Shown piece by piece: positions 225 through 40,861 of a stretch of 42,228 nucleotides of DNA. The position numbers and the translations under genes were made by a program. Every line of letters starts with the position of its first letter. Within the stretch, counting starts at the first letter, position 1. This DNA comes from a virus (lineage: Duplodnaviria > Caudoviricetes). The notes beneath the pieces were generated by a model that saw nothing but the letters and a program-made list of their open reading frames with translations, was not told the origin of the DNA and made no database searches. The stretch lies in IMG/VR virus record IMGVR_UViG_3300027754_000185, positions 1 to 42,228 of that record. The stretch is one strand, 5' to 3'.

Positions 225-3200
225 GCCTACATCAACTAGCCAACCACATGTCTGCCCGAGGCAGAGGCCCAGATTCAATGCTTGTGCACATGACGCCCCG
301 TGAAGTGGCTGGGCTGCAAAGTCTCGCTGTGGCAAATGGTACGTCTCTAACGATCAACCCAGAAACAGGGTTACCAGAAGCGTTTAGTCTTAAAGATCTG
401 TTGCCCACCCTTGCAGGCGCGGCAATTAATTATTTTGCCCCCGGTTTTGGAACAGCAATTGGTGGAGCACTAGGTTTAAGCGGTGCTGCTGGAACGGGCC
501 TTGCTGTTGGGGCTGCTACTGCGGCTCTTTCTGGAGATTTAGGAAAAGGTCTAAGCGCAGGGCTTGGCGCTTATGGCGGTGCAGGCATCACTGAGGGATT
601 GATGGGGCTGGGTACAGGCACGTTATCTTCTGAGGCAGGAAAAGCAGCAGTAACATCAGAAATGGGTGCATTAGAAGCAGATCGGTTAGCTCAAGATGCA
701 ATTGCCTCTAAACTTGCAAGCACCAGTAAATTTGACACATTGTCAGCAGGCGCATCAAAAGCTATGAGCGACCCAATGAGTGCAATAAAAACCATTGGTG
801 GTGGGAGTACAGGTAAAGGTTTGGCATTGGCTGCAAGCGCCATAGCACCTATGTTTGCAGATCAAGCTGCAAATACAGTTCCAACAACCACCTCCATGCC
901 ATCAATTGGAAAGATCAGACCATTCACCTACGATAACTATGAGCAAAGATACACTCGCGGTGAACCCTACACTGCCGCAAATGGTGGGTTAGTTTCTTTT
1001 GCAGCCGGTGGGCCAACGTATTTTGCAGATTTAATTGCACAAGCTAGAAATAACCCTGCTTATAGTTCGCAAGATATTGACGCTGCTATTGCTAGAAATA
1101 TTTCCGCAGGTAACGTAACACAACAACAAATTGACAATTCTTTTACAGCAGCCGCCGCACCAGCAAACATTGCACAGGGAATACTTGGATCGCAAGCGCA
1201 GGGATTTGGTGCTAGTGATATTGATAAAGGGCTTGGGTCTTACAACTTCACACCAACGCAAATACAAGCAGGTCGGGATTACATATCAGATTCTCCTGCT
1301 CAAGCAGCCGTTGTGAGTCCGACTACCAATTTTCAATCCACAAGCACAGTAAATCCTCAAACAGGCATTGCGGGTTTAAATCAAAACATTCAAAACTATG
1401 CGGCTAACATAACTCCAGCCTTTGTTAGCAACATGGGAACAGCAGAGAATCCTTTTACAAATATAAACGCATCTACAGGTAAAACATTCCTAGAAGAAAA
1501 AATACGGACGGACATGGCTAATACGGGTGTGAATGAAGAAGATGTGTTCAATGCAACTGGAAAAACAGTAGCGCAACTAGTTAGTCAGGGTACAGGCGCA
1601 GGCACAAAAACAAATACAACAAATACAACAGTTAATCCAATAACAAATTCTGCTGCTGAAACATTTGTTTTAAATCCAAATAATAATTTTCAATCAGCAA
1701 GCACAGTAAATCCTCAAACAGGCATTGCTGGTTTATATCAAAACATTTCAAATTACTCAGATAAAATTACGCCTGCCTTTGTTAGCAACATGGGAACTTC
1801 AGAGAATCCTTTTAAACTGGCAGATGTAGAAGCCAGAATTAGGACGGACATGGTTAATACTGGTGTAAATGATCAGGATGTGTTCAATGCAACTGGAAAA
1901 ACAGTTGCTCAGTTAGCTAGTCAAGGGTTTCCAAGCGTAGCAAATACAACTACAGGTACAGGTACAACAGCTACAAAAGATACAAATACAGTACTCAACC
2001 CATCTGTAGTTACAGACCTAACAACAGCAGATACAAAATACGTAGCACCCGGTGTTGGCGGTGCTACGGGGGCTGGGCAAGTGGGGGGTGGGACAACCAT
2101 AAACCCCAATGGGACAATCACAACATCCTCACGCATACCCGGCATTCCTGTTGGTGGGTTCACGGGTATGCAGCAAGTACGAGACGCCTACACTACAGGC
2201 GGTGGCGACCTTGGGTATACATCTTATGCGCCAAAAACAATAGAAGAGTTCAATAAAAAGTACACAAACACTGGCGACAGCAAAGCCATGTACGACTATT
2301 TAATGGGTGTACCCGGAGCTACATACCCAACAAAATCTAAAGCAGAAGGCAGTGCTGGCGAGATCATGCGCCCGTACAACGAAGCCACACTAGGAACTCC
2401 AGCTAACCCAAACAAACGCTTAACTTGGAATCCAACCACGCAAAAATATGATCGCAATCCAGATTATGTGCGTAGGGTAGTGACGCCTATTTTAGATGCA
2501 GCAGGTAAGCCTGTACTAGATGATGCAGGAAATCGCAAGAGCAGCACAACAACGTATATGAGTACAAATCAAGCTAGAACAGGACTTGCTTCAAGCGGTT
2601 TAAACAAAGATTCTGGAGCGGCTTTAATTGATTGGGCAACGCTAAACAATGTGGAAGAAGGAACCCTTGCCGAGGCTCTTGGATTGCCTATACAAGAGGT
2701 AATGAGCATGTTTGCAAAAGTTAAAGCAGCTAAAAAGATACCTGCTAAAAATGGTGGTTTGATGCAGCTTGCCAATGGTGGTATGGCTTATGACGTTGGC
2801 GGCTCAGTTAAAGCAGACTACATCGACAGTAAAGGTGACACGCATGTTTGGGATTGGGAAAACGGAATGTACCGTCCTAAAACCCTGCTTAAAAATAACA
2901 AGTCATACACATGGGACAAAACTGCCAACGAATATAAAATAGCTGGCGCTGGTATAAGTGGTTTGATGGATATGTCAGGTAACGGCCCTCCTGCTGGTGG
3001 AGAGAACCCACCCAATACAACACCAGACTACGCCACACTGGCAACGATAGGCCGCACCTTGTCAAACACAGGGCTGACTACTTTGGGGGGATATTTATCT
3101 CAGCAAGCCCAAAATGGCTTTACAGGGCAAACCATCGCTGATTTGAGCAAAGATCCTGAAACGGGGCTATCCCCCGGTGAACTTGGTGGCAGAAATCCAA

Positions 3201-10600: not shown

Positions 10601-13600
10601 ATGCGGTCAATCCTGTTAGGGCTTTAAGACATGAATCTGTCCATGCTTTGAAAGAACTTGGGTTCTTTACAGACGGGCAATGGAAAGCTTTGGTAAATCA
10701 AGCCAATACCAAATGGATTAACAAATATCTTAAACAAAAAAATGTAAGCGGAAATCCATTGGCTGCGGGTGAAGAGTCCCGCTATGAAGCCTACATGAAA
10801 GCTTATGATGGCAATCAAGAAGCAATCATTGAAGAAGCCATTGCAGATGCTTTTGCAGATTTTGATGTAAACGGTGCTCCAGCAGGATTCATGGCTGCAT
10901 TGCTTACCAAGATTCAGAACTTCTTCAAAGCATTGCTGAACGCTTTAAACGGTGCAGGATTCCAAACCGCAGAAGATGTGTTTGGTAAGGTTGAGCGTGG
11001 TGAGTTACGTGGTACTAAAGAAGCTAAAAAAATAAACAAAATTGACGAGAGAAAAAGTTTAAAAGCAGGGTTCCGTGTTCCATTGTCTACAGTTGATTTA
11101 ATGGAAAGTGATGCATTAGTATCCAGAAAAGAATTGAATTTAAAGGTTGAAAAAGAGGAAGATGAACGAGCGGGTCAGTTAAACAACGTTCGTGAAATTG
11201 CTGTTTCTTTAAACAACCAGACAGTTCGTCAATTTGGAAAGATGGATCGCAATAATCTTACTGAAGAAGATGCTGTAAAAATTTCTGAAGCTATGGCAGA
11301 CGAGGTTCTGTACCAGCTTGACACAACTTCTACAACAGGAACTGGGCTAGGCTGGTACTCAAACAATTACCCAAATGCGGTAAAACGTTTATCAACAAAA
11401 TTCCCAGAGTTAAAAACTAACCGACATGCACGGGCTGTGTTTACAGCATTAGTGGCAATTACCTCCAACGGAGAAAGAGTTAAAAAGAACATTTCCAACG
11501 CTATCAATCTTTATTCCAAGCTGCGGATGGGTAAACCATTGGTGGCTATGGGAAATCGTAGACCAACTGCTTTGCAAAATAATCTAAAAACATTAGAGGA
11601 TTTGCTTATAGAACATGGTGAAAACTTTGAACAGCATTTGTTAAAAGAAACTACAGTTTCTGAAATGAATGTTCAGTTGCGTGCAAGAGGTGAAAAACCA
11701 GACGCAAGCTACTTGGCAGAAACCACAGTCCCAACAGCAGCCATTTATTTTGGGCCAAAGCTAGGTGCTTTCTATGCCAATCTTTCTGGGTCTGAAGGCT
11801 ATTTAACAATGGATCTGTGGTGGACACGTACCGTCAATCGTATGCGTGGTTTGTTAATTCCTATGGCAACTGCTGCATCCATTGGAAAATTCAGATCAAT
11901 GATGGAAAGGCCAAATTTAACCCGTGATGAAATTGTTTCGGCTGCTATTCCTTTTAGAGATAAGTATCTGGAGTATGGGTACAACACTGATTTGGAACAT
12001 TTAACAAAATCCAAAGAACCTGCTAAAAAGTTTTTAAAAGCTGCTTGGTTTAAACGTGCTGAAAAAGTTGCTGGTGACAGTTACGATCAGTTGTTGTACG
12101 AACACAACTTAGAAAAGATGGCAAACACCATCTACAAGAACGAATACGAAATGTTGGCAGAAGCTCCATTCACTGCCTCTGACAGAAAATTTATGTACGA
12201 TGTTGGGAGAAAGACACAGTCCCTATTGCGTAATCAGGGAGTTAGTCTTACACTGGCAGACATACAGGCAGCATTGTGGTACTACGAGAAGCGCCTGTAC
12301 CAAAAACTAAGCGGAAGGAAAGCAGATGATATCGGATACGAAGAAGCAATCATCGCCCAAGCCAATGAGGGTACTGGACGAGCAAGACCCAGTGTGGTCT
12401 TCATTGGAGGGGTTGACGGTGGGTCTGTCGCCACAGGAGAGATCGAAAGTTCTGAGGGACTTCGTGAAGAGCCTACCGCTGAAGAATCCAAAGTAGAAGG
12501 AACAAATGAAAACATTTCACCTAGAGAACCTACCGTTCGACCCAGCGATAGAAGCGGGGAAGGACGCAGTGCGGCAAATGGAACAAAACTCTCCCTCCGA
12601 GAAGACATACGATCCTATAGAGGACGCAATGAAATGCAATCCCGGACTCACACGGAAAAAAGCATTGGAGATGGCAGAAGCGTTCGGGTTCTAGGCGCAA
12701 AGCCTATAGCTGAGTTTACCCCTACCGATTCGTTTAAGGGGATTGTCAACGGGTACGGTCATCAGTCTCCTGTGTTTTATGAGATCAGCGGCAAAGATGC
12801 TGCGATCTATGAACAGGCAATACAGGATTCAAAAGATGCCAGCCCATACGGTGCTGCTGTCTATGTCTATCCCGTAGAAGAATACGCAGACATGCGCCTC
12901 TTTATGACAGAGGATGGAAAATCAGGTGTTGCCCTTAAAGGTGATGACATTGTTTCTGTCTTTTCTGGGCCACCTCACAAAGGTTCTGTCAACTCTTCAA
13001 TGCAACTTGCTGTACAAGAAGGCGGCAGAAGGCTTGATGCTTTTGCAACTGTTCTTCCATCGCTTTACAACGCCAACGGCTTTCAAGTTGTAGGCCGCAT
13101 GAAATGGAACGAAGATTACAAGCCAGAAAACTGGGACAAGAAGACATTCTCTGATTTTAATAATGGTGAGCCTGATGTTGTTTACATGGCATACGATCCA
13201 GATGACAACAGGACAGTATTTGAAAATCCGGGTGAATATTTTGATGACCCTGATAAGCTTTCACAAGCGCAAAAGGATGCTGTAAACAAAAATGTTAAGT
13301 ACTCCCTTGGTAAAGGAATCGTACTTGGAACAAAACAAGAAGGATCTATTTCTTTCAACGGAACCCACTACGGAAAAATAAAAACAGACAATCTAAATTC
13401 CTCTAAATACGGCACTGGTTTACAAGGATCAGAATCCCGTAGACTAAGCGGGTACTGGGATGACCGCATCAAGAAGCGGGTCTATTTCTACGTTCCTAAG
13501 TATGACGGGACAATGCCGCTGCCAGAATCTGGTGTAGGTGGTTATGTTTACACACAAAAGTTTGACAACATAGCCAGCCCTGCGGTTATGAGCAAGCTCT

Positions 13601-24812: not shown

Positions 24813-24861
24813 AATATATTTTTTCTGCACTGAAAAACCGAGAAGATTGGGTGTACAGTGC

Positions 24862-25146: not shown

Positions 25147-25401
25147 ATGTTTGCTGAACAAGACCAAGACACCTTGAAATCACTGGTTGAACTGAATGTA
25201 GAAGGATATTTCTCTGGTAGGAAGAACGTCAACCTTGATAAATTTATCCAAGCTTTGATGAGGAACTGCCCCGAGAAATTCCATGATGCAAGGTCGTTGA
25301 AATTGAGAAGGTTCTTTAATGAACCTAGGCCACACAAAGACATCGTCATTCCGATGGCTGGTTGTGTTCATCCCTATGACGAAGTCAAGGAGCCAGCATG
25401 A
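25147..25401 (+). CDS. Hypothetical protein
   Basis: SD AAAGGA, 84 aa, ATGA-coupled to the next gene. Confidence 0.65.
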   Translation: MFAEQDQDTLKSLVELNVEGYFSGRKNVNLDKFIQALMRNCPEKFHDARSLKLRRFFNEPRPHKDIVIPMAGCVHPYDEVKEPA

Positions 25402-25634
25402 GGAACTACAAAAAAGATTACGTCACCCAAGTTGCCCGTGGTGAACATGATGACAGGATGGAGAGACAAAGGGCAAGAAGAGAGATGGACGCCAAGGGTG
25501 TTGATCGTGCAGGCAAGGACGTTGCTCATGTCAAGGCGTTGAGCAAAGGTGGTAGCAACAAGACGGGGGTCAAGCTGCAAGCCCCGTCTAAGAACAGGTC
25601 GTTCCCAAGAAAATCCGATGGTTCAATGAAATAA
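25398..25634 (+). CDS. Small HNH-like nuclease
   Basis: GKDVAHVKALSKGGSN...NRS. Confidence 0.7.
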   Translation: MRNYKKDYVTQVARGEHDDRMERQRARREMDAKGVDRAGKDVAHVKALSKGGSNKTGVKLQAPSKNRSFPRKSDGSMK

Positions 25635-25648
25635 AACTGGAGAGTACG

Positions 25649-26071
25649 ATGATTGATATCTGTTCTTGCTGTGGTCAAAAGATACGCAAACTAAACCCAC
25701 ATAGGATGTGTAAACAAAAAGTAAATTTACTGCAAATATTTTACAAAGCCAAAGATTGGGTGTTCGCACAGGAGGGTTACGGGGTTGAGGTAGAAGGGAA
25801 GATGCAACGTGCGCCCTACCGGGCAAGGGCACATGCAAGCCGTTTGGTTTGGTTTGGCTTGGCAGAACATGGCAAGACGAGATCAGGGCTGTACCGCATC
25901 ACCCCAGAGGGTGTTCAGTTCCTTGCTGGTTCTCATCAAGTGCCTGCGATCATCTATTGCAAGGATGGTGAGGTCGTTGAATCAACTGACAAAAAGGTTG
26001 GCATCAGGGATGTCCGGGGCATTATCCTTGACAAGGATTACTGGGACAACTATTCGCAGATTCAAATCTAA
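25649..26071 (+). CDS. Hypothetical protein with Zn knuckle and winged-helix-like region
   Basis: CSCCGQ; L.WFGL......GLYRITPEG..FL.G. Confidence 0.65.
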   Translation: MIDICSCCGQKIRKLNPHRMCKQKVNLLQIFYKAKDWVFAQEGYGVEVEGKMQRAPYRARAHASRLVWFGLAEHGKTRSGLYRITPEGVQFLAGSHQVPAIIYCKDGEVVESTDKKVGIRDVRGIILDKDYWDNYSQIQI

Positions 26072-26088
26072 GCCTATTTTTCGACCCC

Positions 26089-27870: not shown

Positions 27871-27930
27871 TGACCCGTCACGGACAATTACGGGTGGTTA
27901 TCGGGTGGCTATCGGGTGGCTATCGGATTT
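27870..27930 (+). repeat. 17-bp repeat copy followed by three tandem 11-mers (TCGGGTGGCTA-like)
   Basis: ATGACCCGTCACGGACA at 27870-27886 (also 26951-26967); cgggtggtta-tcgggtggcta-tcgggtggcta-tcgg. Confidence 0.85.
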
Positions 27931-28021
27931 CTATTGGACTTCTATCGGAATAGCACCCCCCGGAAAGACGCTATTTTTCCGGATCGATGTATCTCTGTTT
28001 AAACAACCGCATAGTGTGTCC

Positions 28022-28558
28022 TTACGTAAGGTAGGCAAAGCCTAATTTCTGATTCCTGCAACGCCACGCTACTGTTGGTCTTGGCATATTCAATGCTTTT
28101 GCACATTCAACAACGGAACCCCATGTTCCACTTGGTGTGCTAACCATTCGTGCTAAGTAATGTTTTGAACCATGTTTTGCGCTCCTCTTAACCTTAACCT
28201 CTGGCCTATGCATGGGGTTATTTTCTCCCAAACACCAAGGATGTGGGATGCCCCGCATGGATTGAGATTTCTTTTGGCGCGTCTCATCGGTATCAAGTTT
28301 TCCAAGATTGCCCAACCTTGCGTTTTCACTCCCAGTGCCAATAAACACGTTGCCAAGCTCATATGGGCCAACATCCCCATTTCGGCACATACAAAACTCT
28401 GCTGCACCGCGACCCCGTTGCTCCAACTTTCCAGATGCGTTCCAAAGTTCCAACCATTGCTCAAACGTCAGCAAGAATGAAATTCCCCTAGTTCTGGCGT
28501 TTGACTTTTGCACCTTATAAGCCTTTAAAAACTTTGCTTGTTCTGTAGCTGTATACAT
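28022..28558 (-). CDS. Free-standing HNH-type homing endonuclease with NUMOD-like DNA-binding tail
   Basis: RGISFLLTFEQW...MCRNGDVGPYELGNVFI; ETRQKKSQSMRG; GENNPM; SVVECAKALNM HTH. SD AAGGAG. Confidence 0.75.
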   Translation of the reverse strand: MYTATEQAKFLKAYKVQKSNARTRGISFLLTFEQWLELWNASGKLEQRGRGAAEFCMCRNGDVGPYELGNVFIGTGSENARLGNLGKLDTDETRQKKSQSMRGIPHPWCLGENNPMHRPEVKVKRSAKHGSKHYLARMVSTPSGTWGSVVECAKALNMPRPTVAWRCRNQKLGFAYLT

Positions 28559-28737
28559 GGCAACTCCTTTGTTAACTTATTGCCAAATATACCATATTAC
28601 GATATGGCAAGGAGCATGTACCGGCATAGATTTACGACCAAATTGAATTTTCTTTTATTTTTTGTTTAAACAAAATACGAATTCTTAACATAAAGATTCT
28701 TATGACAACGTAAAGATTTTTATGTATGTTTAAACAG

Positions 28738-28785
28738 AAAGTCCACAGAGTCCAAAACCTAGTGGTCTTGAAGTCTATGGACTTT
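28738..28785 (-). other. 22-bp RNA hairpin on the minus-strand transcript
   Basis: AAAGTCCATAGACTTCAAGACC-ACTA-GGTTTTGGACTCTGTGGACTTT, with 3 G-U pairs and 1 mismatch on the minus strand. Confidence 0.65.
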
Positions 28786-28798
28786 GTCTCTACACAAT

Positions 28799-28823
28799 TT
28801 TCAGTCTACATGCAAACTGAAAA
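28799..28823. terminator. Possible terminator-like hairpin just after the 28825 stop
   Basis: TTTTCAGT...ACTGAAAA inverted repeat, weak AT-rich stem. Confidence 0.3.
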
Positions 28824-28824
28824 T

Positions 28825-29061
28825 TTAACTGCTCTTGCGGATGTAAAACACCGCTGAGACCGGGTGATCGAATGACCGGATCACCGCCACTGAGCCATCT
28901 TGATTGATCTTGGTGACTATCCAGCGATCCTTTGCATAGACTAGGTATCGCTTGCGCTTGGGGGCATGACTGACCCCCACCAGAATGGCACTGTACCGGG
29001 CCAGAGCGGCCCTACAGGCGTCAGAATCGCTGGAGAGTACCTCAACCCGCCCCCAGATCAC
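28825..29061 (-). CDS. Hypothetical protein
   Basis: 78 aa, GGAG SD, overlaps the upstream gene. Confidence 0.55.
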   Translation of the reverse strand: MIWGRVEVLSSDSDACRAALARYSAILVGVSHAPKRKRYLVYAKDRWIVTKINQDGSVAVIRSFDHPVSAVFYIRKSS

Positions 29062-29353
29062 TGGAGCCGCCTACAGGCTTGCCCTTTTCAATCTCAGGAT
29101 CGATCTGGACAAAATCCCTGATGCTCATCATCTGCTTATAAAGATCAGGGTTTAGCGCGTCCCCGTGCCTGATCAGCACCAAGGCTATGCAGTCCCACAT
29201 CTCCGGGGCTTGTGAGATAAGCCTAGCGTTTAAACGTTGGCTCTTGATGGTCAATGTCTTGGATGCACAGTCAGCTATCCGCATCATGCCAAAACTGGTC
29301 TGCGCCCATACAGTGCGTTGTTTCTTATCTGCAAGCCAAGGACTGTTAAACAT
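29042..29353 (-). CDS. Hypothetical protein (NARLI.APEM motif)
   Basis: IADC...NARLISQAPEM, a common phage motif. Start 29353 inferred from the GGGAG SD. Confidence 0.65.
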   Translation of the reverse strand: MFNSPWLADKKQRTVWAQTSFGMMRIADCASKTLTIKSQRLNARLISQAPEMWDCIALVLIRHGDALNPDLYKQMMSIRDFVQIDPEIEKGKPVGGSSDLGAG

Positions 29354-29618
29354 AATGAAATTTCTCCCGCTGTTCAAAAGCCCTGATCAAGTTTCTTTTT
29401 CGTTCTGGATCGTCCAATGGGATGGTATATGCTTTCCAGAATAGATTCTGATTAGCATCAGCCTCTTTTCGACTTCTCGCAAGCCAGACTTCATCAAGCT
29501 TTCCCCATCTCGATACAACCGCCTGTTCAATCATTCCTTGAATCACAAGTAAAGCCAATCGGTGAACCTCAAGTTCCTCTGGTTTAACCGGGTGATAAGT
29601 CATAATAATTTTAGTCAT
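29346..29618 (-). CDS. Hypothetical protein
   Basis: GGAG SD and ATGA coupling at 29618. Confidence 0.6.
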   Translation of the reverse strand: MTKIIMTYHPVKPEELEVHRLALLVIQGMIEQAVVSRWGKLDEVWLARSRKEADANQNLFWKAYTIPLDDPERKRNLIRAFEQREKFHYV

Positions 29619-29701
29619 AGTGGTCTCCAAAAAACAAAATCAACCACAACAACAAGAATGCCCATTGTGTAAACAACAGCCCACATAATCTTATCAAACA
29701 T
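29615..29701 (-). CDS. 28-aa membrane peptide
   Basis: Hand-translated MFDKIMWAVVYTMGILVVVVDFVFWRPL. GGAG SD, fills the gap. Confidence 0.6.
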   Translation of the reverse strand: MFDKIMWAVVYTMGILVVVVDFVFWRPL

Positions 29702-29969
29702 TGGTATTCTCCAGTATTATGTGTGTTGTATTAAACAAATCTAAAATATTAACTAATGTATTGATACCCTTAGAATCATTTGCGCCCCACTCGCTATATG
29801 TTCTTAATACCTCCCGTGCATCGAATTGTCGGCCTTCATTTATTGCGTCAGTTATATAATCATTAATCCATTCTGCTGTTATATCTCGAAAATAGTGACT
29901 GTCATGCAACCCCCAATCATCAGCAGATAATGTCAAGGTAATATGCTTGGCGATTTTTACGTTTCTCAT
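29694..29969 (-). CDS. Hypothetical protein
   Basis: 91 aa, SD TAAGGA. Confidence 0.65.
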   Translation of the reverse strand: MRNVKIAKHITLTLSADDWGLHDSHYFRDITAEWINDYITDAINEGRQFDAREVLRTYSEWGANDSKGINTLVNILDLFNTTHIILENTNV

Positions 29970-30042
29970 TTAAATAATCCTTATCAACTGGCATCGGAAT
30001 CAATGCCCGATAACCCTGCAAGCAAGGCTATCAGTCTTCGAC

Positions 30043-30435
30043 TCAGGTGCTGCTGACCTCATTGGGTATATTAATTTCCTCGCCCATCTTGGACGCCACA
30101 TAACAGCGCATGGCTGCGATCAATGGCGTTGGGCCGCAATATTCTTCTACAAATTCCTCATCCTCCCAAGTAGTTGGGGATGGAAGCGCGGCAACCCATC
30201 CGTCAATAATTCCAGCAAGGCGTAAACAATCAATAGCAATACCCTCCCGCTCAATGATCGGCCCACCTTGCGCCCAGTTGGTTGAGGGTTCCCAACTATC
30301 AAATTCGTACCCGTGCCGTGCCATATCGCGCATCGGCCTGCCGTTTTCATTGAAGTAGACGCCGATGGTGTCGTCCTGCATCACCTTCGCCACTGCATAG
30401 TCAAGGGCAGCGCCCTGTAGTTCAGATGTTTTCAT
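30043..30435 (-). CDS. DUF2591/NinX-like phage protein
   Basis: SEL.GAALDYAVA...PSTNWAQGGPIIERE.I...GPTPLIAAMRCYVASK.G. Confidence 0.85.
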   Translation of the reverse strand: MKTSELQGAALDYAVAKVMQDDTIGVYFNENGRPMRDMARHGYEFDSWEPSTNWAQGGPIIEREGIAIDCLRLAGIIDGWVAALPSPTTWEDEEFVEEYCGPTPLIAAMRCYVASKMGEEINIPNEVSST

Positions 30436-30447
30436 TTTATTAATCCT

Positions 30448-32186
<1,739 letters not shown>

Positions 32187-32190
<4 letters not shown>

Positions 32191-33638
32191 AGTTCACCTC
32201 CGATTAAATTTTCGTTGATTGACGCCATGCGGATAGCCTCAAGGGCCAGCGCGGACTCAGGGGGCTGCTTGGCAGCAATAGTGGTATCCCATGCCTCGCG
32301 CACAGTCAGCAAGTCCAGTGCGCGTACAAAGGCAATCAGTTGGCGCAGGGAGGGGGCATCCACAATGTCACCAGAATCAACCTTGGCCCGTGCCAGATTG
32401 ATAGACTTGACAACGTGCCGCGCCAGTTTTTCGGTGCAGTTGGTATGGCGCACTAGTGCTCTCACCTCGGTATCTTCCGGAAGATATTTAAACGATATCA
32501 CTCTAGCAAAACGGTCCAACAGGCTGCTGTTCATAGACCGGGTTCCGGCATAGCGGCCTGAATCGTCACCATTCCCTAGGGTATTGTCCGCGCCCATCAC
32601 CAAGACGCCAGCAGCGCGAGACCAGACCCGCCCCCCAATATTTACATGGCTATTAGGTTCCAACAGGGAGTTAAGGACTGCCAGATTAGCCGGGTCTGCA
32701 TTCGATATCTCATCTAGCAGAATCACCGCGCCGGGGGTTACAAAGGCTCTCAGGAAGTCGCCCGGTACAAATTCAGTTGCGCCATTGACCAGACCAACAG
32801 CACCGACAAAATCCTCCGGGCTTGTATGCTTGGTAAAGTTTATGCGTGTAAACGCACGTTCTGTCTTCGCTGCAAACTGTTTGACTGCCTCCGATTTCCC
32901 GGTAGATTTTGGACCGCCTAGCCAAATATTTTCCCCGGTCCTCTGCGCCAGCACAAAGTGCCTGATCAGGGTCTCGGTCCATATGTAATGGGGGTCCACT
33001 GGAGGGGAATCAGGATACCCCCACAAGTCAACAGTCAGGGTCTGACCCTGACGGTCCATCACCAGTACATCGAATACCCACAAGCAGGTTTCTTGCGCCA
33101 CTGGTGCAGCCAGCACCGTCATCACCGCCGCTTTGACTGTATCAGTCGCCCCCGCCAGTGCATCATTGATGGGCCTGATGGCAGCAGCCACTGCACTCGC
33201 AACAGCAGCAGAGACCGCTGCCGGGTCCACCGCCGGGACTCTCTGAGCAGCCAGACTAGCAGCCTCTGCCCTTGATGCCACTGCACCAGCAGCATCAATT
33301 GCACTGGTCAAATCAGTCGCAAGCTTGTCTATCCTCAGATTAAGGGTAGTCACGCCATGCGCCACTGCACGGGCGGCTTGTATTGCTTGCGCGGCTTGAC
33401 CAGCAGCATCATCAGCCTTTTGCTTGGCGACAGATGCATCAGCAGCAGCCCCGGCAGCACTCGCAGATGATGCCCCGCCAGTGCATACTGCCCTGACCTT
33501 CGCGGCATCAAATCCCTCACGGTCCAACAAGACCGAATCAAGGGCTTTAGACCCTTGTGGTGCAAACCCTGCCGATTTAACGGCCTCAATCAGCATGGTA
33601 GTGGGGAGGGCCAGCAGCCCGGAAAGACGGGCGCTCAT
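32187..33638 (-). CDS. MoxR/CobS-like AAA+ ATPase
   Basis: Walker A GPKSTGKS, Walker B ILLDE, YAGT..MN.SLLDRF, SLRQL. Ala-rich coiled-coil N-terminus. Confidence 0.9.
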
Positions 33639-34147
33639 ACACTGGCCTCCAGCACCATAGCAACCTCATGCACCGGGCAGATGGGCATACCAACCCGCGC
33701 CCACTTAGCGGTCAGGCGTACATGGTACTTGCAGCTAGGGCAGACGGCCTTTAGCATCCTAGTAGACTGCACTGGCCTTTCACCTACAGTCAGGGCAGAG
33801 TGGGGGTATTCTCCAAGTTCTTGAATCAGGTCCAGCCAGCGCCCGTCAGAGAATGCCCCGGCAGTGTCAAGACCAGCAGCAATTGGGTCAGCCTTGGATG
33901 CCATGCACAACTGCGCCAGCAGGACGACAAAAACGGCAGTCGAGTCAGCCACTGTCGGGCTGATCAGTATCTCGAAAGTGCCATCAGCAGAGGCTTTGTC
34001 GGACCAGCACTCGCCAAGAGTGCCAGAGCGGCGAAAGGTTGAGGGAAACCCGCATGTTATGCGGACCCTCGGCAGTGGATGCCCGGTAGCCTCAAACAGA
34101 GGCGCGGCCTCTTGCGCCGCCGCCGTGAGCCAGTCTTCGCGGTTCAC
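33635..34147 (-). CDS. SprT-like protein with C-terminal Zn ribbon, HExxH apparently lost
   Basis: REDWL...VRITCGFP...GECW...EILISP...YPH...TRMLK..CPSC.Y.VR.T.KW...P.CP.H. GTG start at 34147 overlaps the upstream stop. Confidence 0.7.
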   Translation of the reverse strand: MNREDWLTAAAQEAAPLFEATGHPLPRVRITCGFPSTFRRSGTLGECWSDKASADGTFEILISPTVADSTAVFVVLLAQLCMASKADPIAAGLDTAGAFSDGRWLDLIQELGEYPHSALTVGERPVQSTRMLKAVCPSCKYHVRLTAKWARVGMPICPVHEVAMVLEASV

Positions 34148-34284
34148 AGTGCACCGCCATTCGCTTTTACTGAGAGGCAAGCGTTGTAGCTGCCAGTGTA
34201 GATAATCCTGTAACCATCACGTTCTCTATCGCCCTTGCAGACGATCATGTTCCAGTGGCGGTCTCTCTGAGTGGTGTAAACCAT
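34144..34284 (-). CDS. Hypothetical 46-aa protein
   Basis: Hand-translated MVYTTQRDRHWNMIVCKGDRERDGYRIIYTGSYNACLSVKANGGAL. GGAG SD. Confidence 0.6.
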   Translation of the reverse strand: MVYTTQRDRHWNMIVCKGDRERDGYRIIYTGSYNACLSVKANGGAL

Positions 34285-34346
34285 TGTGGTTTCTCCAAAA
34301 AACTGCAAAAGCGCAGTCCAATGCCCCTAGGGCATCAGACTAAGTT

Positions 34347-34466
34347 TTAGGCTTTGACCCTTGAAATAATGCTCAGACCATCATGGTTTAGGCTGCACCA
34401 TGCACGGGCTGCTTTGAGTGTCTTGAATGTGCGCCCGTGGGCTTTCCAAACGTAACGGGTTTTCAT
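34347..34466 (-). CDS. Hypothetical 39-aa basic protein
   Basis: MKTRYVWKAHGRTFKTLKAARAWCSL... GAGG SD, ATGA overlap. Confidence 0.55.
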   Translation of the reverse strand: MKTRYVWKAHGRTFKTLKAARAWCSLNHDGLSIISRVKA

Positions 34467-34621
34467 AATTCAGTCACCTCAATTTCAGACTCGCTCCAGT
34501 GGTCTGCATCAACAGGGTCAAACATCTCACGGGCTGCATCTCTAGCTGCCTCTTCAGATGCGGCCTCAATTTCAAAGGTCTTGTAGCAGGTGAAGGTCAT
34601 CTCCACGTTGAAGGTTTTCAT
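34463..34621 (-). CDS. 52-aa protein with EIEAASEEAA motif (DpnD/PcfM-like)
   Basis: MKTFNVEMTFTCYKTFEIEAASEEAARDAAREMF... GGAG SD, first gene of the leftward block. Confidence 0.65.
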   Translation of the reverse strand: MKTFNVEMTFTCYKTFEIEAASEEAARDAAREMFDPVDADHWSESEIEVTEL

Positions 34622-34660
34622 GGTCTGGTCTCCGGTCAAGTCAAAATCGACTCAGATCGG

Positions 34661-34689
34661 ATTTGAGCAGGGTACTAGCACCTTGTCAA
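34661..34689 (-). promoter_or_regulatory. Possible sigma70 promoter of the leftward early block
   Basis: Perfect TTGACA, N17, TGc-TCAAAT. The -10 lacks the conserved A. Confidence 0.35.
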
Positions 34690-34972
34690 CGCCCATGATA
34701 TTGTCCGACTAAAACTTAGGGGTATTAGGCATCAACTGGTTTCTATGGGGTCTAGCAGAATGCGCGATGCGCCTGTGCGCGCACGTAGCAACTGCCATGC
34801 CATTAGGCAAAAAGCTTGTCGCATATGTGACTTTGGAGGGTGTGGCGTAGAAACAACAAACCGCTCAGGATCGATTTAAACAGAGGGGGTAAGGGCAGGG
34901 TAGCCAAAATGCCTTTGCGTCCAGCCTGAGCCGTTCTGATGCGTTCTAGAGGCATGTATGGATATACAGTTT

Positions 34973-35067
34973 TGTGGATAACTCAGCCATTTTTGACGTT
35001 TTTTGTGGGGATAACTTGATCTCCAGATGTGGACAACTAAACCTGTGGATAACATCCTGTGGACAAC
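34973..35067. promoter_or_regulatory. Cluster of five co-oriented DnaA-box-like 9-mers
   Basis: TGTGGATAA at 34973 and 35044; TGGGGATAA at 35006; TGTGGACAA at 35028 and 35058. Consensus DnaA box is TTATCCACA. Confidence 0.75.
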
Positions 35068-35136
35068 TCAAATGGGGCTAGAATGCGAACAGATGCAACA
35101 GGTCACTAACTGACTGCCTAGTAACGAAGGAAACCC

Positions 35137-35724
35137 ATGAGCCTAATTAAAGACCATCTAGAGCAAATAAATACTGATCAGTCACAAAATGAAATGGACA
35201 GTTCAGAAAGCGACTATGTGGATCAGCCAGATGATGCCCTTGATGCAGAGATGCTGGCATTTGATGCGGAGTCCCCGAGGCGCAGATATGGATCAGTCAG
35301 GGTCAAGATGTTGACCGTCAGTCAGACCAAGTTCGTGGAGGGGATTATTGCAGGGTCTACCCAGCGTCAAGCATACCGAGACGCCTATCCAAATGATCGC
35401 AGCAATGATGCCTGCACCAGTGCAGCAGCAGCCAAGCTGATGAAACATCCAACAGTCAAGCAGCGGCTGGAGGATGCATGGGGCGAGACCATGGAGAATC
35501 TGGCAGACGATTCAAATGCGACAAAGCGGTTTGTATTGAGGAGCCTGTTGGCACTGTGCAAACAAGGCCAGACCGAGGCGACTAAACTCAAAGCACTCGA
35601 CCTCATGGGCCGCTCAATTGGCTTGTGGAAAGACTCACAAATGATCATTGCACCAGCACCTAGTGCAGCACAACTGAAGCGTGATCTAGCCGGGCATCTG
35701 AAACTGTTTAAACAGAAGGCATGA
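35137..35724 (+). CDS. terS: Terminase small subunit
   Basis: LT.SQ.KFV.....G.TQRQAYRDAY...AAAKLMKHPTV...KLKALDLMGRSIGLW. SD AAGGA, upstream of terL. Confidence 0.75.
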   Translation: MSLIKDHLEQINTDQSQNEMDSSESDYVDQPDDALDAEMLAFDAESPRRRYGSVRVKMLTVSQTKFVEGIIAGSTQRQAYRDAYPNDRSNDACTSAAAAKLMKHPTVKQRLEDAWGETMENLADDSNATKRFVLRSLLALCKQGQTEATKLKALDLMGRSIGLWKDSQMIIAPAPSAAQLKRDLAGHLKLFKQKA

Positions 35725-35841
35725 TGCCTTGTGGCGCAGGCCATGCAGCGTAAGTGAGTGCTAACTGGGTGTTTACACGACCCCACCGGGGGGGCATGGC
35801 CCCCTTTTGACCCGCATGACCCCGCTCCCGTATACGCTGTA

Positions 35842-35888
35842 ATCCACTCAAACATTTCCAATCAAACCTATCCACTCAAACATTTCCA
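35842..35888 (+). repeat. 19-bp direct repeat amid G/C homopolymer tracts
   Basis: ATCCACTCAAACATTTCCA at 35842-35860 and 35870-35888. Confidence 0.85.
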
Positions 35889-35981
35889 TAGGTTTACCCC
35901 CCCTTGTCTTTTCCCTTCTGACCCCCCCCGGTATACATAAAAAAAAATTAATGTAGAATGCGAACGTTCTTATTTTGAGTT

Positions 35982-36233
35982 ATGAGAGTTGTTGTGAAGA
36001 AGCTTCCAAAGAAATGTCAGCTTGTGTATGAGTTTTTACAAGCTTACTCAAGGATGCATGGTATGCCACCGAGTTATGAGGTAGTGGCTAAGAGTTTGGG
36101 TTTGTCTGCTAAGTCAAACATCCACAGGATTGTTCATAGGTTAAAGGATGAAGGGTTGATCACAGTGAAGGCGTATAAATTTCACTCGGTGAAGATGATT
36201 GATAGGTCAGTTGACGAGATAAAAAACCTGTAA
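35982..36233 (+). CDS. LexA-type winged-HTH DNA-binding protein (no peptidase domain)
   Basis: QLVYEFLQAY...HG.PPSYEVVAKSLGLSAKSNIHRIVHRL...G.I matches the LexA N-domain. Confidence 0.85.
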   Translation: MRVVVKKLPKKCQLVYEFLQAYSRMHGMPPSYEVVAKSLGLSAKSNIHRIVHRLKDEGLITVKAYKFHSVKMIDRSVDEIKNL

Positions 36234-36404
36234 AAATATATATGCAGATTGACTTATATACGCCACGATAGTAATTTGTTAAATATCTATACAGATCAAC
36301 AACTTACGTACAAATTTTGGAAATAACTTAACATAATATGCGTTTTTTTGCCATTTTTAGCCAAAAACCTGTCAAGTCGGTTTCCCACAAAAACAACACA
36401 ATAA

Positions 36405-36441
36405 TCACTACATGTAGTGGTCAAATCACTACCGGTAGTGA
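36405..36441. promoter_or_regulatory. Tandem 16-bp palindromes resembling NrdR boxes
   Basis: TCACTACATGTAGTGG (36405-36420) and TCACTACCGGTAGTGA (36426-36441), 21 bp apart. Confidence 0.6.
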
Positions 36442-36806
36442 TTTTTGGAAATTAATTGATTTTTCCAAGAAATGTCCAAAAACATGATGTACATTAACTG
36501 TATTGGATGTTTCGGTTACCCGAACCATCCCACAATGTTTTGCAACACAACACAGTCCGTGTTAGCAAAACATAAGACACAGCAACATCTGTGTTTAACT
36601 CCGAATACCCATGTGCTTGCTATAGAGGGATCAGTGCCTTCTGTGAAGGGATCAGTGCCTGCTCAGTGGTTATCAGTGCTTGCTAAGTGGGGGTCAGAGA
36701 TTTCAGGAGTCATCTGCATTGGGTTGATAAGCGGTATGTGGTTGCTAAGGCTTTGCGCTCTAGGAATGGCTTTGCTGGCGCAAAGCCCTGCACGGGGTGT
36801 AAAAAA

Positions 36807-38303
36807 ATGACCTTGTTGACAAGACAAGAAATCAATGACTACATGTCAGTGGTTGAGAAGGTTCCCATTGCAGAACAAAAGAAGATAGCTGCTCTTCTTG
36901 AGATGGATAGAGTGGAGAGGTGCAAGGATTCTTTCTTGTTCTTTGTAGGTCAGATGTGGCCTGTGTTTATTTCAGGTAAGCATCATCAGATCATGGCAGA
37001 TGCTTTTGAGAGAGTTGCAGATGGTTCTCTCAAGAGATTAATCATCAACATGGCTCCAAGGCATACCAAGTCTGAGTTTGCCTCTTATCTTTTACCGTCT
37101 TGGTTCTTAGGTAAGTTTCCAGAGAAGAAGATTATTCAGACCGCTCACACCGCAGAACTTGCTGTTGGGTTTGGTAGGAAGGTGAGGAACCTTGTTTCTT
37201 CAGATAATTTCTCAAAGGTTTTTGATCTAAAACTTTCCTCAGATTCAAAAGCTGCTGGTAGGTGGAACACCAACAAGGGCGGGGATTATTTTGCTATCGG
37301 AGTTGGTGGTGCTGTGACAGGTAAAGGTGCTGATTTGTTGATCATTGATGATCCTCATTCAGAGCAAGAAGCAAAGCAGGGCAACCCTGCTGTGTATGAC
37401 AATGTTTATGAGTGGTACACCTCCGGGCCAAGGCAAAGGCTTCAACCGGGCGGGGCTATCATCATAGTGATGACTCGGTGGTCAAAGAAAGATTTGACCG
37501 GGCAGATTATCAAAAATGCAGAAAAGAGCGGGGTTGATGATTGGGAGGTCATTGAGTTTCCTGCCATCATGCCTTCTGGGACTCCCATATGGCCTGCATT
37601 CTGGTCAAAGAAAGAACTGGAAGCTATCAAGGCTGAGATTCCTGTATCTAAGTGGGAAGCTCAGTATCAGCAGAATCCCACATCAGAAGAAGGGGCTATC
37701 ATCAAGAGGAACATGTGGAGCATCTGGGAGCCTGAGAAACCCCCTGAGTGTGAGTATGTGATTCAGTCTTGGGATACAGCTTTTGAAAAATCAAACAGGG
37801 CAGATTACAGTGCATGTACAACATGGGGTGTGTTTTACAAGCTGGATAAAGATGGTAAGCAAGCTCCTAATATCATTTGTCTAGATGCGTTTAAACGCAG
37901 GCTAGAGTTTCCTGAACTTAAAGAGAAGGCGTTAGAGCTTTGGAAAGAATGGAACCCTGATTCTTTGATCATTGAGAAGAAAGCTGCTGGTGCTCCTTTG
38001 ATTTACGAATTGCGGAAAATTGGTATTCCGCTTTCGGAGTACACACCGGGTAAGGGGCATGACAAGATTGCTCGTGTAAACTCTATTTCAGATCTGTTTG
38101 CTTCAGGGATTGTCTGGTGTCCAGACACAAGATGGGCAGATGAGTTGATGGATGAAATGGCATCTTTTCCAAATGGTGATAATGATGACCTTGTAGATTC
38201 GACTAGTCAGGCGTTGATCAGGTTTAGACAAGGTGGTTTTATTTCGATTGATTCTGATGAAAAAGATGAGTATGAATTTAGGCGCAAAGTGGAATTTTAT
38301 TGA
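36807..38303 (+). CDS. terL: Terminase large subunit
   Basis: INMAPRHTKSE, LLIIDDP, MTRW, QYQQNP, nuclease SWDTA and DDLVDS. ATG at 36807. Confidence 0.95.
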   Translation: MTLLTRQEINDYMSVVEKVPIAEQKKIAALLEMDRVERCKDSFLFFVGQMWPVFISGKHHQIMADAFERVADGSLKRLIINMAPRHTKSEFASYLLPSWFLGKFPEKKIIQTAHTAELAVGFGRKVRNLVSSDNFSKVFDLKLSSDSKAAGRWNTNKGGDYFAIGVGGAVTGKGADLLIIDDPHSEQEAKQGNPAVYDNVYEWYTSGPRQRLQPGGAIIIVMTRWSKKDLTGQIIKNAEKSGVDDWEVIEFPAIMPSGTPIWPAFWSKKELEAIKAEIPVSKWEAQYQQNPTSEEGAIIKRNMWSIWEPEKPPECEYVIQSWDTAFEKSNRADYSACTTWGVFYKLDKDGKQAPNIICLDAFKRRLEFPELKEKALELWKEWNPDSLIIEKKAAGAPLIYELRKIGIPLSEYTPGKGHDKIARVNSISDLFASGIVWCPDTRWADELMDEMASFPNGDNDDLVDSTSQALIRFRQGGFISIDSDEKDEYEFRRKVEFY

Positions 38304-38311: not shown

Positions 38312-40861
38312 ATGGCAACCAACATTGATAAATCGTTGTACCAAGCCCCTATGGGTTTGGATGACATGGGTGATGAGGCAATTGAGATAGAGATTGTTGA
38401 CCCGGAGTCAGTGAAGATTGGTATAGGGGGCATAGAGATTGAGATTGATCCTGATGCAGAAGATGATGAAGATTTTTCTGGAAATCTTGCAGAGGAAATG
38501 TCTGAAGGGGCCATGCAGACCCTTAGTTCTGACTTAACTTCAGAAATAGATAATGACAAGGCAGGACGCAAGGATTGGGAGAAAGCCTACACAGAAGGCT
38601 TGAAACTGTTGGGCCTACAGTATGAAGAGCGCACAGAGCCTTGGAACGGTGCTTGTGGCGTATTTCATCCCATGATCACAGAGGCAGTGGTCAGGTTTCA
38701 ATCAGAGACTATCACCGAAACCTTCCCTGCTGCTGGCCCAGTAAAGACCAAGATTATTGGTAAAGAGACTAAGGAGAAGAAGGAATCAGCAGTTCGTGTT
38801 CAGGCAGACATGAATTATCAATTGACTGAGAAAATGGTTGAGTTCAGGGCAGAGCATGAGAGGATGCTGTGGAGCCTACCAGCTACAGGCTCGGCGTTCA
38901 AGAAGGTTTATTACGACCCAAGCCTTGGCAGGCAGATATCCATATTTATCCCGGCAGAAGATATCTTGTTGCCTTATGGGGCATCGGACATACAGTCTTG
39001 TTACCGTGTAACCCATGTGATGCACAAGACCAAGAATGAAATATTGAAGCTGCAAGCCGCTGGGTTTTACCGGGAATGTGACATTGGTGATCCAACCAAA
39101 GAGACCACCGACATTGAGAAAGCCAAGGACAAAGAGACCGGGTTCAGTGATTTAAACGATGACCGGTTCACCTTGTATGAGATTCATGCAGACCTTGATT
39201 TAAAGGGGTTTGAGGACACCGACAAAGACGGTGATGAAACCGGGATCATGCTACCGTATGTTGTAACCTTAATAAAAGGTACAGGAGAAGTTTTGGCGAT
39301 TCGCCGCAACTGGGAAGAAGATGACGACCTCCGACTTAAACGACAACACTTCGTTCACTACCAATACATCCCGGGTTTTGGGGCTTACGGCTTCGGCCTT
39401 TTCCACCTCATCGGTGGGTTTGCGAAGTCGGCTACCAGCATTATGCGACAGCTTGTGGACTCAGGAACACTGTCCAACTTGCCGGGTGGTCTCAAGACCA
39501 GAGGACTCCGAATCAAGGGAGATGACACCCCCATTGCCCCCGGTGAGTTCAGAGATGTAGATATTGGCTCTGGGGTGATGAGGGACAACATTATGATGTT
39601 GCCCTACAAGGAACCAAGCCAAGTTCTCTACACCTTGCTGGGAAATATTGTTGAGGAAGGCCGTAGATTTGCCGCCACCGCAGATTTAAAAATCAGCGAT
39701 ATGTCCGGACAGTCTCCGGTAGGAACAACGCTGGCATTGCTGGAGCGCCAACTCAAGGTGATGACCGCAGTGCAGGCTAGGGTTCATGCGGCGTTTAAAC
39801 AAGAACTCAAGCTGCTGGCCCGGATCATTGCCGACTACACCGACCCTGACTATACCTATGAGCCTGAAATTGGGGACAGGAAAGCCAAGAAGGAAGACTA
39901 CGACGATGTAGATGTGATTCCGGTCAGTGATCCCAATGCAGCCACCATGAGCCAGCGGGTTGTCCAGTACCAAGCTGTGATTCAGATGGCGCAGATGGCC
40001 CCGGATATTTATGACTTGCCTCAGTTGCACCGCAACATGCTGGAGGTTTTGGGGATTAAGAATGCAGAGAAATTGGTTCCCTTGCCTGATGATCAGAAAC
40101 CAACAGACCCGGTAACTGAGAACATGATGATTATCAAAGGAGAGCCGGTCAAGGCGTTCTCCTATCAGGATCAGAAATCGCACATTGGCGTCCACATGGC
40201 AATGATGCAAGACCCCTCAGTGACGCAATTGATTGGGCAGAACCCCAAGGCTCCTCTTATCCAAGCAGCCATGATGGCTCACATTGCAGAGCATGTTGGG
40301 TTCCAGTATCGACAGCAGATTGAGCAGCAGCTAGGAATGCCGTTGCCACCACAAGATGAGAAGTTGCCACCCGAAGTTGAGACTGCTCTATCTGGAATGA
40401 TGGCCCAAGCTGCTCAACAGGTCTTGCAACAAAATCAAGCACAGGCTGCTCAACAACAAGCACAGCAAAATCAACAAGACCCGTTGATTCAAATGCAGCA
40501 GATGGAGCTTCAGATTAAGCAGCAGGAGTTGCAAATCAAAGCGCAAGACTCCCAAATGAAGAATCAGCTTGCTATGCAGCAGCTACAAGCTAAGAACCAG
40601 CAAATGGCTCAACAAGCCGCTATGCAAGAAAAGAAATTACTAGTTGATGCCACAACACAAGCTGACAAGCTCAAACTGGAGCAGCAGAAAGCTCAGTTGC
40701 AGAGCCAGCTTGCAGGGTTGAAAGTTGGGGCGCAGATACAGGACAGCAAAGCAAAACTGTCAGCGCAACAACAAGAAGCTGGCGTCAGGATGGGTATTGA
40801 TGTTGCCAAGAGCAAGGCACAAGCCATGCAACAACCAAAAACACCGAAAGAACCAAAATGA
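38312..40861 (+). CDS. Portal protein with long Gln-rich C-terminal barrel (P22-like podovirus type)
   Basis: Follows terL. HPMITEAVVRFQ, GSAFKKVYYD, GTTLALLE, Q-rich coiled-coil tail. Confidence 0.85.
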   Translation: MATNIDKSLYQAPMGLDDMGDEAIEIEIVDPESVKIGIGGIEIEIDPDAEDDEDFSGNLAEEMSEGAMQTLSSDLTSEIDNDKAGRKDWEKAYTEGLKLLGLQYEERTEPWNGACGVFHPMITEAVVRFQSETITETFPAAGPVKTKIIGKETKEKKESAVRVQADMNYQLTEKMVEFRAEHERMLWSLPATGSAFKKVYYDPSLGRQISIFIPAEDILLPYGASDIQSCYRVTHVMHKTKNEILKLQAAGFYRECDIGDPTKETTDIEKAKDKETGFSDLNDDRFTLYEIHADLDLKGFEDTDKDGDETGIMLPYVVTLIKGTGEVLAIRRNWEEDDDLRLKRQHFVHYQYIPGFGAYGFGLFHLIGGFAKSATSIMRQLVDSGTLSNLPGGLKTRGLRIKGDDTPIAPGEFRDVDIGSGVMRDNIMMLPYKEPSQVLYTLLGNIVEEGRRFAATADLKISDMSGQSPVGTTLALLERQLKVMTAVQARVHAAFKQELKLLARIIADYTDPDYTYEPEIGDRKAKKEDYDDVDVIPVSDPNAATMSQRVVQYQAVIQMAQMAPDIYDLPQLHRNMLEVLGIKNAEKLVPLPDDQKPTDPVTENMMIIKGEPVKAFSYQDQKSHIGVHMAMMQDPSVTQLIGQNPKAPLIQAAMMAHIAEHVGFQYRQQIEQQLGMPLPPQDEKLPPEVETALSGMMAQAAQQVLQQNQAQAAQQQAQQNQQDPLIQMQQMELQIKQQELQIKAQDSQMKNQLAMQQLQAKNQQMAQQAAMQEKKLLVDATTQADKLKLEQQKAQLQSQLAGLKVGAQIQDSKAKLSAQQQEAGVRMGIDVAKSKAQAMQQPKTPKEPK

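Follow-up and report, generated by a model that had tools for sequence, protein, structure and literature searches.

A dispersed palindromic octamer of a phage genome is linked to a SprT-like zinc-ribbon gene in unrelated phages and plasmids

Introduction

The palindromic word GTTTAAAC is strongly over-represented in a linear virus record of the Caudoviricetes (IMG/VR record IMGVR_UViG_3300027754_000185, 69% complete), the whole 42,228-nucleotide (nt) stretch of which is called the window here. A preliminary description made from the letters alone had proposed a selected dispersed signal. We report that the word probably serves as a docking address for a zinc-ribbon protein that the phage itself encodes at 33635-34147 on the minus strand, a SprT-like zincin ending in a ribbon (ribbon gene and ribbon protein in the following).

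Dispersed sites read by a protein of the element itself are known. The KorB operators of IncP-1 plasmids are dispersed and palindromic, some of them are intragenic, and their element-encoded reader, a ParB-family helix-turn-helix (HTH) protein, lies near partition genes. Unlike KorB, the ribbon protein gave no ParB-family match in scans of the window open reading frames (ORFs). The stoperators of Cluster A mycobacteriophages (L5, TipsytheTRex) are likewise more than 20 genome-dispersed sites for a phage-encoded protein, some promoter-proximal (PMC9283540). The window sites differ in being 8-bp, mostly palindromic, intragenic and unoriented, in a putative reader that is a zinc ribbon on a zincin instead of HTH domains, and in that the word is found on plasmids too and is conserved across host phyla. 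HIP1 (GCGATCGC) of cyanobacteria is also a hyper-abundant, conserved and quasi-periodic palindromic octamer; according to PMC4390886, PMC5861425 and PMC13756078 it is chromosome-wide and tied to host methyltransferases, whereas the window word appears restricted to mobile DNA and goes with a gene of the element itself.

On the protein side, SPRTN (Spartan) and Wss1 share the zincin fold. SPRTN is activated by DNA structure and cleaves regardless of substrate sequence (PMC7534798 and PMC7826251); in contrast, targeting of the window protein appears to be DNA-sequence-specific, and its catalytic motif has been lost. Lizalica gp46, a SprT-like protein of Cluster AZ/EB/EH actinobacteriophages, is matched by a protein of the window family (P0035; 39%, E 2e-30), and the Lizalica genome carries 24 copies of GTGTAAAC, one of them 44 nt upstream of gp46. 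The main text of the Lizalica paper gives no binding site and neither strand of the word; SPRTN-like repair or lysogeny was proposed there for the Cluster AZ/EB/EH SprT (10.1101/2025.05.26.655371). The window protein differs from gp46 in having no HExxH, and its gene comes first in a MoxR-vWA operon. An open-access literature search retrieved no description of the word-gene pairing and no paper tying the word to phages or to SprT.

Results and Discussion

Over-representation of the octamer

The window contains 22 exact copies of GTTTAAAC, and about one site per kb once close variants are included:

2598..39800, exact GTTTAAAC sites, 22 copies, 19 coding and 3 intergenic (27997, 28664, 28728); starts at 2598, 4182, 4431, 8940, 9837, 10136, 10502, 12048, 15974, 18438, 21790, 24739, 27080, 27997, 28664, 28728, 29228, 30993, 31660, 35706, 37889 and 39793
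13546..38081, GTGTAAAC/GTTTACAC variant sites, 12 copies, in genes about equally sense and antisense; starts at 13546, 15143, 19452, 23309, 25708, 26568, 29667, 31912, 32846, 34274, 35771 and 38074
1374..39157, ATTTAAAC/GTTTAAAT variant sites, 10 copies; starts at 1374, 5383, 7095, 13797, 15885, 17363, 18495, 32486, 34874 and 39150

The 22 coordinates of the preliminary description were exact and complete, with no further exact copies, and its expectation of about one copy from base composition was in agreement with the value of 0.86 obtained at Markov order 0. Orders 1, 2 and 3 predicted 0.80, 0.83 and 2.2 copies, the word being the top-ranked 8-mer of the window at these orders, and 100 dinucleotide shuffles gave a mean of 0.84 and a maximum of 3. 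The over-representation is thus more than 15-fold (22 vs. 0.83). Higher-order models, which had been suggested as a check, predicted 4.9, 9.8 and 16.8 copies at orders 4, 5 and 6; these expectations are inflated because the models were fitted on the sub-words of the word itself. The excess is clear at orders 0-3 and small at order 6.

The enrichment survived the codon-preserving null model that had been named as a refuting check. When synonymous codons were shuffled within each of 49 genes (2000 rounds), 1.72 ± 1.23 coding copies were obtained, with a maximum of 7, against 19 observed. An origin of the word in a protein motif, already doubted in the preliminary description, was ruled out by this shuffle. 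As also described there, the copies fall in two reading frames (x-L-N, 11; x-F-K-x, 8) and in intergenic DNA (3). Both peptides, x-L-N and F-K-x, occur somewhat more often than expected (16 vs. 9.0, P=0.012; 13 vs. 7.3, P=0.046), and so does one control peptide, x-I-N (P=0.046). Among the 29 coding positions where the protein permits GTTTAAAC, 19 hold it; 31 control palindromic 8-mers realised 0-4 of their 1-33 permitted positions and were not enriched.

The abundance of one-mismatch copies held for GTGTAAAC (12 in total; coding 9 vs. 1.57 in the codon shuffle), ATTTAAAC (10 in total; coding 9 vs. 2.64) and, weakly, CTTTAAAC (6 vs. 1.78). It did not hold for TTTTAAAC (4 vs. 2.98) or for the remaining five observed one-mismatch variants, with 1-2 copies each. 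GTTTAAAC, GTGTAAAC and ATTTAAAC together make 44 sites in 42 kb, 37 of them within genes; the asymmetric variant was found in ORFs four times sense and four times antisense. No longer repeat was detected around the sites, where T/C at −1 and A/G at +8 are followed by little further signal in the flanks.

An artefact of mutation or composition, in which codon bias, repair bias or restriction avoidance would leave AT-rich palindromes behind, would fit the frequency of TTTAAA in the window (61 vs. 17.5) and the purging of many GC-containing palindromes. This account is scarcely credible: the codon shuffle falls short of the observed number by more than tenfold, the 31 control palindromes are unenriched, and the word is present in phages of 63-71% GC, where 0.0-0.1 copies are expected. 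It is already largely refuted, and the word is under selection at the DNA level beyond codon use.

Linkage of the word to the ribbon gene

Linkage was assessed on loci of at least 8 kb dereplicated at 70% identity (65 rows), with enrichment called at P<1e-3. Loci whose ribbon carries the canonical Q-x-T-R arm were enriched in 38 of 54 cases, and control loci from the DSL-LC04 terminase lineage in 0 of 43; 80 control loci together hold 11 copies vs. 18.4 expected. No ribbon was detected in the 21 longest control contigs or in the 4 near-complete ones (positive control, 5 of 5).

In seven cultured phages that carry the ribbon and come from unrelated hosts the counts always exceeded expectation, most weakly in Bas97. 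The observed/expected values were 24/0.1 (Lizalica), 22/0.1 (Zeta1847) and 35/0.1 (Marky) for GTGTAAAC, and 20/0.0 (R26L), 7/0.1 (Mica), 34/1.7 (Venkman) and 6/0.7 (Bas97) for GTTTAAAC. The hosts of phages in which the word recurs span Arthrobacter, Microbacterium, Streptomyces, Dinoroseobacter, Burkholderia, E. coli and Methylophilales, so the word, once suggested as a handle for host prediction, predicts no host. SprT genes with diverged tails (CN1, PSA20, Epa43 and genome G028) were accompanied by no GTTTAAAC. In phage CN1 this homologue (locus L194, 26376-27424) is annotated as 'antirestriction protein' and lies beside a second anti-restriction gene.

Among 80 IMG/VR loci with terminases 75-83% identical to that of the window, 59 hold at least three copies, with at most 0.42 expected; four gene-less cultured terminase relatives hold 0-3 copies vs. 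1.1-2.5 expected. Three close terminase relatives on contigs too short to show the ribbon gene have no GTTTAAAC; other words are enriched in them instead, GCTCGAGC in one (L001; 6 vs. 0.11 in 7.3 kb) and GCTAAACA in two (L052, L055; 4-5 in 5-6 kb).

The ribbon gene was also matched in 74 plasmid records. A Novosphingobium contig carries 11 sites vs. 0.1 expected and pSAMIE_5 carries 3 vs. 0.1, one of them inside the SprT-ribbon gene; a Ralstonia plasmid with an altered arm has none. In alphaproteobacterial integrative mobilisable elements (L179-L190) two sites were observed: the first precedes mobC/relaxase, and the other lies within the SprT-ribbon gene (in L189, at 8769 and 10359).

The word is thus linked to the ribbon gene across unrelated phages and plasmids. 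Together with the codon null model and the saturation of permitted positions, this linkage to one element-encoded gene supports the earlier proposal of a selected dispersed signal bound by a phage protein.

Absence of enrichment in candidate host genomes

The preliminary description had also considered a host protein, a HIP1-like repeat and a methylation mark. A Burkholderiales metagenome-assembled genome holds a relative of the element, and no word enrichment was found in 61 genomes of the same bacterial family. The count peaked at 68 copies per 3.0 Mb, about 23-fold below the phage, and never exceeded that of the reversed word, a control not matched for TA content, so that avoidance is not claimed. 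In 10 gene-bearing bacterial genomes the word was not enriched chromosome-wide, and the sites cluster on the element contigs (4 of 4 palindromes in G043, 3 of 4 in G073). These results speak against a host protein or a HIP1-like repeat and indicate that the word is not a host-wide repeat; the enrichment that had been looked for in candidate hosts was found in 0 of the 61 genomes. As to a methylation mark, no methyltransferase was found among 48 scanned ORFs of the 69% complete record.

A reader other than the ribbon, either a host protein or methylase in the manner of HIP1, DNA uptake sequences (DUS) or GTWWAC, or a different phage protein such as the LexA-like HTH protein encoded at 35982-36233, is highly improbable. 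The LexA-like gene is common in the family, and two partial contigs (G003 and G012, 65% and 43% complete) are enriched with no gene match, which would leave room for such a reader; in a third (G009, 52% complete) the variants are enriched. Against it stand the host genomes and the clustering of sites on gene-bearing contigs, and the LexA-like gene went undetected in the enriched Lizalica, Marky, R26L, G008 and L066.

The SprT-ribbon protein

The putative reader and its ribbon are encoded as follows:

33635..34147, minus strand, SprT-like zincin with C-terminal zinc ribbon, 170 amino acids (aa), putative reader of the word
33647..33784, minus strand, zinc-ribbon module with the Q127-x-T-R arm, C136-x2-C139, R144, W149 and C157-x2-H160

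It is the ribbon module whose presence and sequence both track the word. A profile of its 46 residues matched 2277 clusters at 50% identity among 1.84 billion representatives. One row of a seed alignment came from genome G074, on which no claim rests. The top row of the search, P0121, was a repetitive 2078-aa false hit and was dropped. In P0134 and P0219 the ribbon was observed on unrelated N-termini.

In the window protein HExxH is replaced by A78-Q-L-C-M82, and the segment that holds the third His conserved in the family has been lost; the ribbon shows no such damage. The protein is predicted from its sequence to be protease-dead. The structure model (predicted local distance difference test, pLDDT, 93) showed a zincin-like domain and a separate ribbon. 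Matches of the zincin domain were middling: abylysin (Z 6.5), Wss1 (Z 6.4, root-mean-square deviation (rmsd) 3.3, 90 residues) and SPRTN 6mdx (Z 5.6, rmsd 3.6, 86 residues). Foldseek gave no match in the PDB at E<=0.001 with the full model or the ribbon alone, and the weak fold hits include IrrE and CapP (E 0.27 and 0.38). Homologues bear PF10263, the window protein itself has no Pfam match and no NCBIfam match was found, and its neighbours in the Atlas are SprT-like (0.95).

Among full-length representatives 87 of 97 keep HExxH. The motif is missing in 15 of 57 rows of a quick tree, from which one truncated row was left out, and at least four state changes were counted. Of the motif-less loci 9 of 11 were still enriched, with a median of 0.75 sites per kb vs. 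0.44 in the other loci (P=0.16). Sites thus persist after loss of HExxH, and catalysis appears, on these sequence comparisons, to be dispensable to their retention.

Sites upstream of the gene and variants of the arm

A variant site lies close to the start of the ribbon gene in the window:

34274..34281, plus strand, GTGTAAAC site that precedes the start of the SprT-ribbon gene by about 127-132 nt, a candidate operator for autoregulation

A site within 120 nt upstream of the ribbon gene was found in 14 of 54 loci vs. 3.8 expected, and, in a separate count, one within 200 nt in 14 of 51 vs. 6.7. Such sites would probably serve autoregulation.

Clades with QSTN and QPTR arms use ATTTAAAT/ATTTAAAC, and their sister clades retain GTTTAAAC; the G half-site fraction is 0.25-0.53 in the former vs. 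0.64-0.89. A DKCR arm accompanies GTATAAAC (7/0.6). The exchange of Arg for Asn together with G for A matches the textbook readout code. A residue code for GTTTAAAC vs. GTGTAAAC was not found; the choice mostly tracks GC content, with R26L and Mica as exceptions. It is very probable, given the linkage and these co-variations, that the ribbon binds the word directly; it would likely act as a dimer on the palindrome, and the Q-x-T-R arm would probably read the outer base pair.

The same reader could act as a genome-wide repressor that silences the element, as with stoperators or KorB, and the zincin would switch it by self-cleavage or as an anti-repressor. Sites near promoters, both ahead of the ribbon gene and in early intergenic gaps (27997, 28664, 28728, 29667 and 34274), would suit a repressor, as would several Venkman sites that overlap early-gene stop codons and the IrrE and CapP hits mentioned above. 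According to 10.1101/2025.05.26.655371, Cluster AZ phages have no identified immunity repressor, and Liebe, with a truncated SprT, forms clear plaques while its near-twin Maureen forms turbid ones; Liebe, however, carries three further changes. We regard a repressor as rather unlikely. The 37 intragenic window sites show no bias between sense and antisense, whereas stoperators are 13-bp, asymmetric, intergenic and orientation-dependent (PMC9283540). The word is near-constant across host phyla, which would be unlike diversifying immunity sites. Bas97 encodes a cI-like repressor of its own and forms clear plaques (10.1101/2024.09.12.612763), and no integrase was found among the 48 ORFs scanned in this 69% complete record.

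Spacing and conservation of the sites

The 44 window sites are more even than expected by chance, with a coefficient of variation (CV) of 0.65 (P=0.002 vs. uniform, P=0.003 vs. permitted positions), an evenness equalled by only 1 of 255 similarly abundant 6-mers. In R26L the CV was 0.37. Gaps below 200 nt numbered 31 vs. 55.6 expected in 20 pooled records, which suggests diminishing returns of nearby sites, that is, local action.

At orthologous positions in relatives the exact word was kept in 127 of 403 aligned instances vs. 8.3% for aligned 8-mers generally, the rows being related and hence not independent; the conservation check proposed in the preliminary description was thereby borne out. 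At position 32846 relatives alternate between the two main words.

Even spacing and the deficit of short gaps would also suit a structural role of the same reader, in which dimers bridge or compact DNA, aid partition or packaging, or block exonucleases or translocases (RecBCD/AddAB, in a Chi- or matS-like manner). The dispensable protease, the ribbon gene next to parA on two plasmids, and the Sak annealase and exonuclease encoded in the window point the same way. We consider such a role unlikely: the intact HExxH of most full-length representatives indicates that catalysis is important as a rule, no more than about two sites are present within 20 kb of integrative elements, and the J-domain fusions described below point to recruitment of an activity.

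Gene neighbourhood

The ribbon gene is the first gene of a leftward operon and adjoins the small terminase gene. It is followed by:

32187..33638, minus strand, MoxR-type AAA+ ATPase (CobS-like), next gene after the ribbon gene in the operon, a candidate partner by synteny only
30448..32190, minus strand, vWA protein (CobT-like) with an intact N-terminal HExxH (residue 70), candidate partner

The three genes follow one another in the family, and all three were undetected in 4 cultured terminase relatives. The N-terminal HExxH of the vWA protein is kept in 29 of 29 aligned members. Among 30 long proteins scanned, three motif-less ribbon proteins (P0231, P0236 and P0257) carry N-terminal DnaJ-like domains. 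On plasmids and integrative elements the ribbon gene lies beside rep, parA or mobC/relaxase.

Weighing of the evidence

Several observations count against direct reading of the word by the ribbon and against local action with the neighbouring genes. Below the enrichment threshold lie 16 of the 54 canonical-arm loci, 15 of them above expectation and one (L312) with no site, and 4 of the 11 non-canonical rows are enriched, one of these four being truncated by a contig end. The 120-nt cut-off was set post hoc and does not cover the site of the window itself, and intergenic sequence is less constrained. Each word shift represents a single clade. The QPTR clade holds 32 ATTTAAAC, 5 ATTTAAAT and 1 GTTTAAAC, the last below the number that free half-site pairing predicts, and host restriction of GTTTAAAC, instead of readout, could have caused the shift. 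The ribbon model matches only generic rubredoxin, MCM and ribosomal ribbons (best Z 3.8, rmsd 2.2, 34 residues). For the two core words alone evenness in the window reached P=0.087, the wider word set having been chosen post hoc; core-word spacing is significantly even in only 5 of 20 records, and the sites are clumped in Venkman, G044 and G033. Finally, MoxR-vWA is absent from all 80 distant ribbon loci, and its adjacency may be plain family synteny.

The enrichment is nevertheless real and selected, and is best explained by an element-encoded reader. As to what the reader does, we tentatively favour selected docking sites whose reader clears or blocks host proteins on phage DNA, an explanation that is quite possible though far from assured. 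The ribbon protein would bind the sites early in infection, and each site would license an action confined to its surroundings, from hundreds of bases to a few kilobases. Host DNA-bound proteins such as silencers, stalled or cross-linked proteins, or non-restriction defence machines would then be removed by the N-terminal module. In most relatives removal would be by proteolysis; in the window phage the motif-less zincin may serve as an adaptor for the adjacent MoxR-vWA remodeller, and the J-domain fusions elsewhere may recruit DnaK. The reader would not be titrated away because the word is rare in candidate host chromosomes.

A general anti-restriction role is unlikely because Bas97, itself ribbon-bearing, is 'very sensitive to RM systems' (restriction-modification; 10.1101/2024.09.12.612763) and because the window purges 24 of the 64 six-base palindromes. 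A broader form of the docking explanation, possible but doubtful, is a widespread self-addressing system of mobile DNA, in which the ribbon would read a self-written word about every kb through a residue-to-base code and tether a swappable protein-removal module. The module would be a protease, a J-domain or, here, a dead protease recruiting MoxR-vWA, stripping host proteins off invading DNA.

Other features of the phage genome

Judging from its genes, the genome is that of an HTVC023P-like podophage. It encodes a portal, terminases, large ejection-type proteins, primase/helicase, Sak, RusA and GroES, and the terminase shares 50-59% identity with its counterparts in HTVC023P, HTVC027P, 023Pt_psg01 and DSL-LC04. 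No tRNA genes were found in the window. The absent six-base palindromes have a summed expectation of 205.6 (for example CTGCAG, 0 vs. 23.7, and CAGCTG, 0 vs. 24.4), which suggests hosts with many type II restriction systems.

The remaining observations concern individual loci:

7627-17556, plus strand, 3309-aa polyvalent protein with an ART-PolyVal ADP-ribosyltransferase domain (2069-2236) and LPD38, preceded by one gene that bears a transglycosylase and one for an ejection protein; probably a virion protein that is injected
18686-20928, 31-nt repeat present seven times at stop/start junctions of small leftward genes, several of which share the same peptide tail; the region looks like recombination-shuffled gene cassettes
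28022-28558, minus strand, HNH/homing-endonuclease-like gene after primase/helicase
34973-35070, DnaA-box-like TGTGGATAA (34973, 35044), accompanied by degenerate copies, in front of the small terminase gene; TGTGGATAA ranks high in many relatives, and the region is a candidate host-DnaA origin
35982-36233, plus strand, stand-alone LexA-type DNA-binding domain with no peptidase part, between the terminase genes and conserved in the family
41015-41473, plus strand, GroES-like co-chaperonin gene after the portal

Conclusions

Selection that fills two-thirds of the protein-permitted positions of a word is rare in phages, especially in one that purges palindromes. Culturable models exist in E. coli phage Bas97 (6-7 sites) and in the Arthrobacter pair Maureen and Liebe, which differ in plaque type. 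If the ribbon reads the word, the pairing would provide a handle on the function of an abundant uncharacterised phage and plasmid gene family, and the ribbon would be a sequence-specific DNA-binding module of very small size, of which variants with other specificities exist in nature. In the window phage, where catalysis appears dispensable, the emphasis would move from 'DNA repair protease' to 'tether'.

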